Positions 38,245 to 46,793 of a DNA stretch of 64,000 bases are shown here, piece after piece. The notes beneath the pieces are model-generated. The model did no database searches, was not told where the DNA came from, and worked only from the letters and a program-made list of their open reading frames with translations. The translations under genes and the position numbers were made by a program. The number at the start of each line of letters is the position of its first letter. Positions within the stretch are counted from its first letter, which is position 1. The stretch lies in contig CATOCA020000001.1 of assembly GCA_951406725.2 (NCBI GenBank), positions 2,666,001 through 2,730,000 on the forward strand. The letters run 5' to 3'. Source of the stretch: Octopus vulgaris (Eukaryota).

Positions 38245-38369
38245 TTTATAAGCGATTTAAAAAAACCCACAAAAACCGTTAGATTCACTTCAACATTTCA
38301 TTTTAATTTGTTGAAATCTTTTCGTCACTTTCCGACCGTGACCTGTTCACTGACAAAGCTTCATATGTA

Positions 38370-38400
<31 letters not shown>

Positions 38401-38599
38401 TACGGAGATGTACTTGCATAGCAAGTGACTTGATCTGAGATCGTGTGCTGGAACGAAAATAATTGCAGCGTGGAAGGTGTTTATAAGCGATTTAAGAAAC
38501 ACACAAAAACCGTTAGATTCACTTCAACATTTCAATTGAATTTGTTCAAATCTTTTCCTCACTTTCCGACCGTGACCTGTTCACTGACAAAGCTTCATA

Positions 38600-38638
<39 letters not shown>

Positions 38639-39506
38639 TACGGAGATGTACTTGCATAGCAAGTGACTTGATCTGAGATCGTGTGCTGGAACGAAAACAA
38701 TTGCAGCGTGGAAGGTGTTTATAAGCGATTTAAGAAACACACAAAAACCGATAGATTCACTGCAACATTTCAATTGAATTTGTTCAAATCTTTTCCTCAC
38801 TTTCCGACCGTGACCTGTTCACTGATAAAGCTTCATATGTATATATATATATATACATATATATATATTACGGAGATGTACTTGCATAGCAAGTGACTTG
38901 ATCTGAGATCGTGTGCTGGAACGAAAACAATTGCAGCGTGGAAGGTGTTTATAAGCGATTTAAGAAACACACAAAAACCGTTAGATTCACTTCAACATTT
39001 CAATTGAATTTGTTCAAATCTTTTCCTCACTTTCCGACCGTGACCTGTTCACTGACAAAGCTTCATATGTATATATATATATATACATATATATATATTA
39101 CGGAGATGTACTTGCATAGCAAGTGACTTGATCTGAGATCGTGTGCTGGAACGAAAACAATTGCAGCGTGGAAGGTGTTTATAAGCGATTTAAGAAACAC
39201 ACAAAAACCGTTAGATTCACTTCAACATTTCAATTGAATTTGTTCAAATCTTTTCCTCACTTTCCGACCGTGACCTGTTCACTGACAAAGCTTCATATGT
39301 ATATATATATATATACATATATATATATTACGGAGATGTACTTGCATAGCAAGTGACTTGATCTGAGATCGTGTGCTGGAACGAAAACAATTGCAGCGTG
39401 GAAGGTGTTTATAAGCGATTTAAGAAACACACAAAAACCGATAGATTCACTTCAACATTTCAATTGAATTTGTTCAAATCTTTTCGTCGCTTTCAGACAG
39501 CGACCT
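38245..39506 (-). repeat. 230-bp tandem repeat (about 5.5 units, separated by TA tracts) carrying a G3-C8 hammerhead-like motif on the minus strand
   Basis: cggagatgta at 38641, 38871, 39101 and 39331 (period 230). The minus strand of 38307-38357 reads tttgtca-GTGAACA-g-gtcac[ggtcggaaa]gtgac-GAAA-agat-TT-caacaaa. Confidence 0.85.
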
Positions 39507-40657
39507 ACATTGTCCTGTCAGATTCAGGTGGATTGATCGGTTCTGCGACCCCTTTCGGGTGAATTAGAGGTCGTTCTAAACACCCCTTGAAGAGAAGGAC
39601 AGGCAGAGAGTATGGTAGAGCTGTCATGAGAGGGTGATAGGCAGCAGGCGATAGAGATAGAGTAAGGAATCTTATAGCAGATAGAGAGGGTATTGGCAGT
39701 AAGAGAGGATGAGGGGAAGAGAGAAGAAAAGTAGTGAGAGAGATAGAGTATAAGGCTAAGGGACAGATGTGAGGAAGAATTAGCAGTGAGAGAGGATGAG
39801 GGGGCAGAGAAGGACAGGCAGAGAGTATGGTAGAGCTGTCATGAGAGGGTGATAGGCAGCAGGCGATAGAGATAGAGTAAAGAATCAGAGAGCAGATAGA
39901 AAGGCTATAAGCGGTAGAGACAGAGGGAGATGAGGGAGTGGAAGTCAGGACAAGGAAGTGAGGTTTGGGGCAGTGGGAGTCGGTCGTCAGAGAATCTTGG
40001 GAGCGAGCGATGGGATGCAGGAGTTTGGCAGGCTGGATTTAGCGGTACGGAGAGATGGAGGTGCAATAATGGGACGCTGGCGATTCAATTAGGAATTAAG
40101 GTATTTAATTGTATTGATACGTGTTACGATGTAAAAGAAAAGAAAGAGAAAAGAAGAGAGAAAAAGAAGGACTCTGATGTAGACGATAATGAACTTTGAA
40201 CTGTAACGTGAATTGTTGTGATACGAACATTGTATAATGTATCGATTATAGGGTTCTGATTGGACTGTGACGTAACGTGTACCTTTGAAATACTGTATAT
40301 GACTTGTTGTGTCTCCGGACTGTTATATTGTTACATGCATGTTGTTAAATGCTTTGATCTGTGGTATACCCGTATGATGTATTGATTTGTTGTTTGCCTT
40401 AAATGCTTTGATGTTGTAACCATTGATTGTCATATAAACTAGTTGTTGAATGTAAGCCAGTGTTGCCAGTTGTTGCCTTGCCTCTTTTGGTGTCTCTCTC
40501 CGGTTGTATCTCTGTGTCTCGGTTGCCTTGCTGCGGTTGTGTCCCTCTCCTCTCCCCGACGAGTTTCCGTGGCGGGAATATTCGCTGATCGAGTCGGGCC
40601 TGTCTGAGGGATTCCGTACAGTTTTCGGAGGTCCCACTCGTAACAATATATATATAT

Positions 40658-41101
40658 AAATAATAGTTATCGCCATACTAATATGGCATTCTTATAAAAA
40701 TAAGAATAAAGCTGTCCGCTTATTAGCTCCATGAGGCCATCGCCTTAAGTTAGCTATTTGATACACAAACTGTATCCATATAACCTTCGAACAAGGGAGG
40801 TCAGTCGCTCCACACTACTTGACCGAAGCTAGGTAAATAAAACCTTCGAACAGAGATTGTCAGAAGCGACACCTACTGGTCTGGCTATGCTGCATTGAAA
40901 AGGGGCAATACCCCGAAACGCGTCTGTAGCTGCCGGTCAAATAGTGTGGAGCGACTGACCTCCCTTGTTCGAAGGTTATATGGATAGGGTTTGTGTATCA
41001 AATAGCTAACTTAAGGCGATGGCCTCATGGAGCTAATAAGCGGACAGCTTTATTCTTATTTTTATAAGAATGCCATATTAGTATGGCGATAACTATTATT
41101 T
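40658..41101. repeat. Inverted repeat with arms of about 168 bp (40658-40825 and 40934-41101) and a spacer of about 108 bp
   Basis: aaataatagttatcgccatactaatatggcattc...cacactacttgaccg is the near-exact reverse complement of cggtcaaatagtgtgg...gtatggcgataactattattt. Confidence 0.95.
40889..40930 (+). ncRNA. Minimal type I hammerhead, U3-A8 core variant
   Basis: gctgca-TTGAAAA-gggg[caata]cccc-GAAA-cgcg-TC-tgtagc: 6-bp stem I, perfect stem II, palindromic stem III, GUC site. Confidence 0.75.
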
Positions 41102-41151
41102 TCCGGGAACGCTGCCGTTGTTCTCTTTTAGAGAGATTTTCTAATTTATTA

Positions 41152-41202
<51 letters not shown>

Positions 41203-41205
<3 letters not shown>

Positions 41206-41373
41206 GCTTTGTCAGTGAACAGGTCACCGTCTCAAAGCGACGAAAATATTTGGACATCTAACGATTTTTGTGTGTTTCTTAAATGGCTTATAAACACCTT
41301 CCATGCTGAAATTGTTTTCGTTCCAGCACACGATATCAGATCAGGTCACTTGCTATGCAAGTACATCTCCGTA
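41203..41373 (+). repeat. Single unit of the 230-bp G3-C8 hammerhead repeat (internally deleted subtype)
   Basis: gaagctttgtcagtgaacaggtcaccgtctcaaagcgacgaaaatatttggac...catctccgta is the reverse complement of the 38.2-39.5 kb units. Confidence 0.85.
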
Positions 41374-45690: not shown

Positions 45691-45774
45691 AATGTAGCAA
45701 ACCCTCCCACAGCACACCTCGAAGAACAAAATGAGGGACAAAATATATAATATATATATGTATATATGCGGATA

Positions 45775-45821
<47 letters not shown>

Positions 45822-45824
<3 letters not shown>

Positions 45825-46027
45825 GCTTTGTCGGTGAACAGGTCACCGTCTCAAAGCGACGAAAATATTTGGACATCTAACGGTTTTTGTGTGTTTCAAA
45901 TGGCGTTTGCTAAACACCTTCCATGCTGAAATTGTTTTCGTTCCAGCACACGATATCAGATCAGGTCACTTGCTATGCAAGCTCATCTGCTGAAATGGAT
46001 ATATATGTATATATAAAATCATATATC

Positions 46028-46088
<61 letters not shown>

Positions 46089-46261
46089 GCTTTGTCAGTG
46101 AACAGGTCACCGTCTCAAAGCGACGAAAATATTTGGACATCTAACGGTTTTTGTGTGTTTCTTAAATGGCTTATAAACACCTTCCATGCTGAAATTGTTT
46201 TCGTTCCAGCACACGATATCAGATCAGGTCACTTGCTATGCAAGTACATCTCCGTAATATA

Positions 46262-46359
<98 letters not shown>

Positions 46360-46525
46360 GCTTTGTCAGTGAACAGGTCACCGTCTCAAAGCGACGAAAA
46401 TATTTGGACATCTAACGGTTTTTGTGTGTTTCTTAAATGGCTTATAAACACCTTCCATGCTGAAATTGTTTTCGTTCCAGCACACGATATCAGATCAGGT
46501 CACTTGCTATGCAAGTACATCTCCG

Positions 46526-46597
<72 letters not shown>

Positions 46598-46793
46598 GAA
46601 ACTTTGTCAGTGAACAGGTCGCGGTCGGAAAGCGACGAAAATATTTTAACAAATTCAATTTAAATGTTGAAGTGAATCTAACGGTTTTTGTGTGTTTCTT
46701 AAATCGCTTATAAACACCTTCCACGCTGCAATTATTTTCGTTCCAGCACGCGATCTCAGACCAGGTCACTTGCTATGCAGGTACATCTCCGTA
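45822..46793 (+). repeat. Four more TA-separated units of the G3-C8 hammerhead repeat
   Basis: Units start at about 45822, 46086, 46356 and 46598. Confidence 0.88.
46603..46653 (+). ncRNA. Best-preserved G3-C8 hammerhead variant
   Basis: tttgtca-GTGAACA-g-gtcgc[ggtcggaaa]gcgac-GAAA-atat-TT-taacaaa. Confidence 0.6.

Follow-up and report, generated by a model that had tools for sequence, protein, structure and literature searches.

The 64,000-nucleotide stretch of Octopus vulgaris DNA analysed here (assembly GCA_951406725.2, contig CATOCA020000001.1, positions 2,666,001 to 2,730,000; referred to below as the window, with positions counted from its first letter) contains tandem arrays of a short repeat with a hammerhead ribozyme-like motif, in which the consensus C3-G8 pair of the catalytic core is replaced by G3-C8. 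Judged from its sequence, this repeat is the terminal-repeat (pLTR) stub of a Penelope-like retroelement (PLE) encoding a reverse transcriptase (RT) and a GIY-YIG endonuclease. Taking the evidence together, we consider it probable that intact copies of the stub carry a type I hammerhead with a G3-C8 pair, likely cleaving itself slowly as a dimer, and that the copies in the window have decayed and were multiplied as DNA. The element is of a known kind with a new core variant, and not a new kind of system.

The family is abundant in the genome carrying the window, which is 2.8 Gb in size and rich in repeats: an exact 26-nt piece of the repeat body recovered at least 8,427 copies (reversed control, 0). 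Exact patterns for the flanks of the core matched 4,121 copies (reversed control, 0), of which 3,449 have a GTGANCA core, and among the 16 copies found to be changed at both positions 3 and 8 with slightly shorter flanks, none has C3-G8. G3 and C8 are therefore fixed together, as the original prediction had asked. The consensus that had been pieced together from imperfect window copies is real, being the commonest form among dispersed copies (e.g., loci L007, L023, and L025); in a sample of 66 copies spanning the motif, the core is preserved in 52, and in 42 the stems are preserved with it. Intact dispersed copies have the proposed minimal type I topology, with a stem I of 7 bp and a stem II of 5 bp (both of which form in the minimum free energy fold), a G10.1-C11.1 pair, an extra nucleotide after position 9, and a palindromic stem III. 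The core residues U4, G5, A6, and A9, G12, A13, and A14, the A15.1-U16.1 pair, and H17 are present in the majority form and in the youngest copies. The majority form departs from the consensus C3-G8 of CUGANGA, yet its positions 3 and 8 still form a Watson-Crick pair, as G-C. When a 208-nt natural copy was dinucleotide-shuffled, an equally strong motif arose in 0 of 20,000 shuffles and a loose one in 3 of 20,000. Models based on CUGANGA do miss the motif, as had been expected, since an Rfam scan of 36000-49000 with E up to 10 returned no hammerhead and only low-complexity noise of the miRNA type. Most words of the stretch occur in sequencing runs under four organism labels, and in the rows listed for four runs under two organism labels no alternative letter reaches a 5% share at seven core positions. 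At one locus (L094, G000:C2:171238000-171247999), three family copies form a tandem of 3.4 kb; position 8 is A in each of them, and no open reading frame (ORF) lies between them.

Among subfamily variants (those present in at least 10% of copies), none is disruptive at the 38 core and stem positions, where a single U-A to U-G change is seen, and 11 events fall at the 68 unpaired positions of the leader, loop II, and the following untranslated region (UTR). The sequences thus suggest that the fold may be under selection in the source elements. Of the expectation that stems would be conserved relative to loops and would covary, the first part would agree with this small comparison; for the second, within-family variation includes only one compatible change. 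An apparent covariation in stem II, gtcgc/gcgac versus gtcac/gtgac, was rejected: the difference falls on two CpG sites, so the CpG decay that had been allowed for would account for it, and it offers no independent covariation.

The suspected link to Penelope pLTRs is supported by the finding that the motif flanks an RT/GIY-YIG ORF, lying approximately 1.0-1.1 kb behind it and again approximately 55 nt before its start codon. Each unit consists of a predicted start site, the hammerhead, and, as its 3' part, the first 31 codons of the ORF, from which the reading runs on into the ORF in loci L159 and L261. The order in L159 is motif (1236), ATG (1334), ORF (with a stop and a frameshift), and motif (5497), which corresponds to a pLTR-ORF-pLTR partial tandem. 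In translation, the parent ORF has a YVDD RT motif, a C-x3-C-xx-C linker, and, at its C terminus, a GIY-YIG domain with CCHH. The GIY-YIG domain matches PF01541 at 23.1 bits against a cut-off of 22.6, and the RT is assigned from the motif and from homologues named RT. The ORF start is 39% identical over 122 aa to that of a sister family described below. Among 13 family loci fetched by their ORF, the motif lies downstream of the ORF in 11 and is not seen within the fetched stretch in two; in the eight closest (two of which overlap) it is identically intact, in one case behind 1,025 open codons. In locus L170, both motif copies carry G8. The parent has a 1-kb microsatellite-rich 3' UTR, and family copies show an inverted 5'-truncated partner, an optional tail, and a (TA)n target. 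The linker agrees with the CX2-5CxxC pattern of Neptune, and the features as a whole are those of an endonuclease-bearing (EN+) PLE of the Neptune/Nematis type, an assignment made from features. No match to the parent ORF is present in the window, and the long interspersed nuclear element (LINE) at 42918..45740 was rejected as the parent, as it encodes an AP-type (apurinic/apyrimidinic) endonuclease and an RT unrelated to the parent ORF. A second PLE of another type, with RT and GIY-YIG and in which the CxxC linker was not seen, lies beside a family copy at another locus (L092, G000:C1:72977000-72986999).

The G3-C8 pair would most simply be a natural compensatory swap, and the derived state, because four related elements, namely the sister family and three metagenome loci (L130, L131, and L133), have C3-G8 in the same place. 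The sister family is 55% identical to the present one over 815 aa, and a tree built from the C-terminal 250 aa, without named reference elements, places the two together (100/97). The sister motif has a stem II related to ours and shares the extra G, and its 3-8 pair is C-G; position 9 is C instead of A, and there is no palindrome. With many open ORFs of 1,312 aa and complete pLTR-ORF-pLTR copies (e.g., L166), it looks very recently active; its loci include L164-L166 (e.g., G000:C22:44548000-44557999) and L099-L128. Among the protein homologues, one labelled Octopus vulgaris looks, by eye, almost the same as this sister element. Five loci of more distant relatives were found in metagenomes. 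Three of them (31-37% identical) have enough downstream DNA, and in all three a canonical CUGANGA motif stands just behind the ORF; these motifs have C3-G8 and share the extra G, and their stem II shows two-sided changes at pairs 2, 3, and 5. L130 has a different palindrome and a complete stem I. Hammerhead-like motifs of other families were also seen in the fetched loci, with U3-A8 (L094 and L071) or canonical C3-G8 (L037 and L007).

How the stubs arise was read from the ends of 99 distinct copies, taken from the first 100 body matches on contig C1. Counted from the predicted cut, the 3' ends fall at +86..89 in 40 copies and at +147..150 in 44 (84 of 99 in total); both ends, referred to as body and tail, lie inside the ORF start and mostly abut (TA)n. 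The 5' ends lie 51-70 nt before the cut site in 54 of the 99 copies, with a scatter of approximately 16 nt, and only four copies extend further. Among 88 dispersed loci on C1 (with five places counted twice), 52 are inverted pairs, 35 are solo, and one is head-to-tail. Of 720 matches, the first 100 include 79 in which a G replaces the element's C before the presumed +1 A of TCAG, and an untemplated G is a known mark of a copied cap. A spliced-acceptor origin of this start (CTAAC...CAG; 1,126 matches with at most two mismatches) was considered and found unsupported, as the copies share no common upstream exon and their 5' ends are scattered. In the mechanism we propose, the A of TCAG, approximately 17 nt ahead of stem I, would be the point where transcription begins. 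The element's RT would initiate within the ORF start, at one or the other of two internal sites, and run to the capped 5' end of uncut RNA, which would make a stub of approximately 150-210 bp the commonest insertion. Cutting would have no part in copy-making because the ribozyme would be weak or protein-assisted. At five loci (L299, L301, L302, L307, and L312), sequence beginning at the exact predicted cut site is duplicated or joined inside another copy; such junctions may have come about by template switching at the end of a cut RNA, but no excess over a control position was found.

Ten units in the window have a GTGAACA core and one further unit is cut at its 5' end, in line with the approximately ten units with a hammerhead-like core first reported. 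Their stem I starts at 41208, 45827, 46091, 46362, and 46603 on the plus strand and at 39289, 39059, 38829, 38591, and 38357 on the minus strand, where a partial unit without the core is found at 39519. Tandem Repeats Finder and hammerhead scoring describe the minus-strand array (38245..39506) as 5.4 decayed pLTR stubs of period 230 bp with (TA)n spacers, and Tandem Repeats Finder reports 3.2 units of 271 bp at 45743-46597. The first unit of the plus-strand array (41203..41375), with a 26-nt deletion and an A-C mismatch in stem II, has been split from the remainder by later insertions; at L005, the array is unbroken, such that a unit of this type and its upstream flank adjoin the other units. 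Three further deletion-type units with (TA)n spacers and the same disabling changes follow at 45822..46529 (plus strand), and the last and best preserved unit (46598..46795, plus strand) terminates at the family's tail end.

The best window copy of the hammerhead-shaped motif, at 46603..46653 on the plus strand, lies in this last unit. It forms six of seven pairs of stem I (46603-46609/46647-46653), the mismatch being the second pair from the core, followed by the core at 46610-46616 (G3 at 46610, C8 at 46615, and the extra G at 46617), stem II at 46618-46622/46632-46636, GAAA at 46637-46640, and the palindrome up to 46645, with the predicted cut after 46646; the positions originally given for stem II (46618-46636) and for the cut (46646) are correct. 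The stretch 46703..46795 on the plus strand corresponds to codons 1-31 of the Penelope-like ORF, with the ATG mutated in this copy and intact, at 46437, in the preceding unit. None of the ten units is complete in core, stem II, stem III palindrome, and closed stem I, and, as first stated, no window copy equals the consensus. Four plus-strand units combine the A-C mismatch in stem II with the 26-nt deletion, which removes the 3' strand of stem I. Among the five minus-strand units with full cores, four have G opposite G10.1 and have lost the G10.1-C11.1 pair, and in all five the palindrome is broken and stem I is open at its base. Unlike intact dispersed copies, the window copies have minimum free energy folds without stems I and II.

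The window copies are decayed and have likely multiplied as DNA from one old insertion, because no unit is intact and because arrays of both window variant types share their flanks at eight places on contig C31, to which the window belongs. These flanks are 93-99% identical over 1-2 kb, the sequence following the last unit is common to all six C31 loci checked, and the number of units at the minus-type site varies from 2 to 15. One head-to-head insertion, i.e., an inverted pair, may have decayed, after which slippage or unequal exchange at (TA)n would have enlarged each arm; other elements would then have inserted, and the block would have been segmentally duplicated along C31.

The original prediction had instead proposed a candidate retrozyme family, self-cleaving and possibly circRNA-producing. 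Read in this way, the arrays would be a non-LTR (non-long terminal repeat) retrozyme, whose tandem units are transcribed, cut themselves as dimers, close into circles, and return to the genome by rolling-circle reverse transcription, which we regard as very improbable. Units of 230-270 bp in tandem do fit animal retrozymes (Cervera and de la Pena 2020, PMC7229834), and retrozymes have been reported as derived from PLE pLTRs (Li et al. 2026, bioRxiv 10.64898/2026.07.22.740005). One low-depth contig from run X1 joins the body end to the leader across (TA)n, a junction that a genomic array explains equally. However, the working definition of an active retrozyme in the latter source is two consecutive complete motifs, and no such pair was found among the ten units scored. 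The arrays also stand between the same flanks in duplicated blocks and share their disabling changes, only one of the 88 dispersed loci is head-to-tail, and dispersed copies have the start and tail ends of a PLE, so that the unit is better described as part of an autonomous PLE.

That the likeness to a hammerhead is due to chance in an AT-rich repeat is hardly credible. The empty Rfam result would agree with it, and so would the fact that our descriptor had been relaxed to fit, but the shuffles yielded no motif as strong, and the sister family has a C3-G8 motif; with canonical hammerheads in the same place in all three metagenome relatives, such syntenic homologues refute it.

Several observations weigh against our interpretation of the intact copies and their history. 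Copy counts show fixation and not selection, because retroelement copies resemble each other by descent, and the difference between paired or core and unpaired positions (Fisher p 0.007, or 0.052 with the wobble counted) comes from a small test with few events that were collapsed by hand. The cross-family alignment behind the swap was set by eye on structure, stems I and III are weak in L131 and L133, and Pfam gave no RT-domain match in the parent ORF. For the capped start, the flank comparison for the extra G covered only five of nine copies, and the stretch before the presumed start also resembles a splice acceptor. None of the 99 sampled copies has its start 2 nt or less from the cut site; genome-wide, 59 starts fall at the cut site and 43 at a control position, which is no excess (p 0.14), and on inspection approximately 21 of 30 at the cut site and 17 of 20 at the control were true starts. 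Finally, the clade spreads well with an aberrant motif, because the sister family has C9, no palindrome, and many intact ORFs.

These last two points, the missing trace of cut RNA among inserted copies and the thriving sister family, also favour an alternative that keeps the same element and history but takes the G3-C8 motif for a vestige that no longer cuts, with the stems kept by recent descent or for another role, such as RT or ribonucleoprotein binding or 5' UTR structure. It is further consistent with reports that PLE hammerheads cut poorly in vitro (PMC4209133), that the hammerhead is not needed for PLE insertion in vitro (PMC11167929), and that Naiads spread without canonical hammerheads (PMC8557442). 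We hold this alternative to be rather unlikely, because a dead motif has no reason to retain a pair confined to the active fold: positions 3 and 8 have both changed, to the one pairing that preserves the known tertiary pair, and the other nine core positions, G10.1-C11.1, and the palindrome are intact in the youngest copies. The motif of intact copies likely still self-cleaves, as far as its sequence tells. More broadly, we find the case evenly balanced that a young and highly abundant animal retroelement family has fixed a catalytically active G3-C8 hammerhead, that swapped cores lower cutting so that most of the RNA stays whole for insertion, and that a large share of PLE hammerheads escapes CUGANGA-based censuses.

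Comparison with known systems, as far as the portions of the cited papers used here extend, places the element among PLEs. No report of a natural G3-C8 core was found in the literature, a provisional result in that the supplements of PMC4209133 and PMC8557442 may list such cores. A natural U3-A8 core is known (PMC3088659; PMC4209133), the latter reporting the swap in Schistosoma. An engineered C3G/G8C change partly restores cutting in the hammerhead of PAc, a Poseidon element of Anolis (Frangieh et al. 2024, PMC11167929); a review likewise gives engineered G3-C8 as a partial rescue (PMC8495972), and the mutant is also remarked on in PMC3884650. The minimal type I hammerheads of metazoan PLEs (Cervera and de la Pena 2014, PMC4209133) share with ours the pLTR location, G10.1-C11.1, an extra nucleotide between 9 and 10.1, a palindromic stem III, predicted activity as dimers, and copies that are mostly solo or on opposite strands, but have C3-G8 or U3-A8, whereas ours has G3-C8, fixed in the family counted above, with its 7-bp stem I and 5-bp stem II.

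Similar to PAc, the octopus element would have two RT starts in the ORF start that give rise to a tail, and uncut RNA as insertion template, both described in vitro for PAc and here read from genomic copies (PMC11167929). In PAc, however, G3-C8 is an engineered mutant rather than the natural state, the ORF starts inside the hammerhead instead of having its ATG approximately 55 nt behind the cut site, and the Neptune/Nematis-type CX2-5CxxC linker distinguishes our element. That linker is common to Neptune and Nematis (Craig et al. 2021, PMC8557442), EN+ PLEs which also resemble our element in the C-terminal GIY-YIG with CCHH, partial tandems, inverted 5' partner, optional tail, and (TA)n targets; their tail is 30-40 nt, whereas ours is approximately 60 nt, with a 1-kb microsatellite-rich 3' UTR in addition. 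Non-LTR retrozymes (PMC7229834; Li et al. 2026) are similar in unit size, tandem layout in the window, and PLE origin, but differ in that the tandem units here lack an intact motif and the family is not dispersed as tandems.

Other repeats surround the arrays. Between them is a stub of another PLE-like family (40658..41101, strand unassigned) with 168-bp inverted arms that are 98% identical; it contains a complete hammerhead-shaped motif at 40889-40930 on the plus strand, with a U3-A8 core, a palindrome, and a UC cut site, so that the window alone carries G-C and U-A forms of the 3-8 pair. The unrelated LINE (42918..45740, plus strand; boundaries read from the sequence) sits inside a (TA)n spacer of the plus-strand array, and the same array contains, at 41489-42780 and between (TA)n runs, 1.5 tandem copies of an approximately 830-bp stretch. 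LINE-type ORF remnants occur at 31375-32868, 34199-37193, and 42982-45593, the last with AP-endonuclease and RVT_1 matches. Repeat fragments have commonly expanded in tandem in this region, as shown by an array of approximately 78 copies of a 184-bp unit at 6914-21266, a similar 184-bp unit at 58662-59313, and several further short arrays of units resembling short interspersed nuclear elements (SINEs) at 47435-48034, 51538-52494, 54901-56916, and 60628-62910.

The tandem arrays of the window are thus ordinary decayed repeats, and the significance of the family lies in its dispersed copies. A natural G3-C8 pair in thousands of copies, beside relatives with C3-G8, provides evolutionary support for the 3-8 tertiary pair. 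Standard hammerhead searches have a blind spot, as Rfam missed the family. The family also lends genomic support to a model so far described in vitro for one element, in which RT starts at two internal points and the template is uncut and apparently capped. Together, the G-C family, its C-G sister with C9, and the U-A neighbour constitute a ready test set for the role of hammerheads in PLEs.

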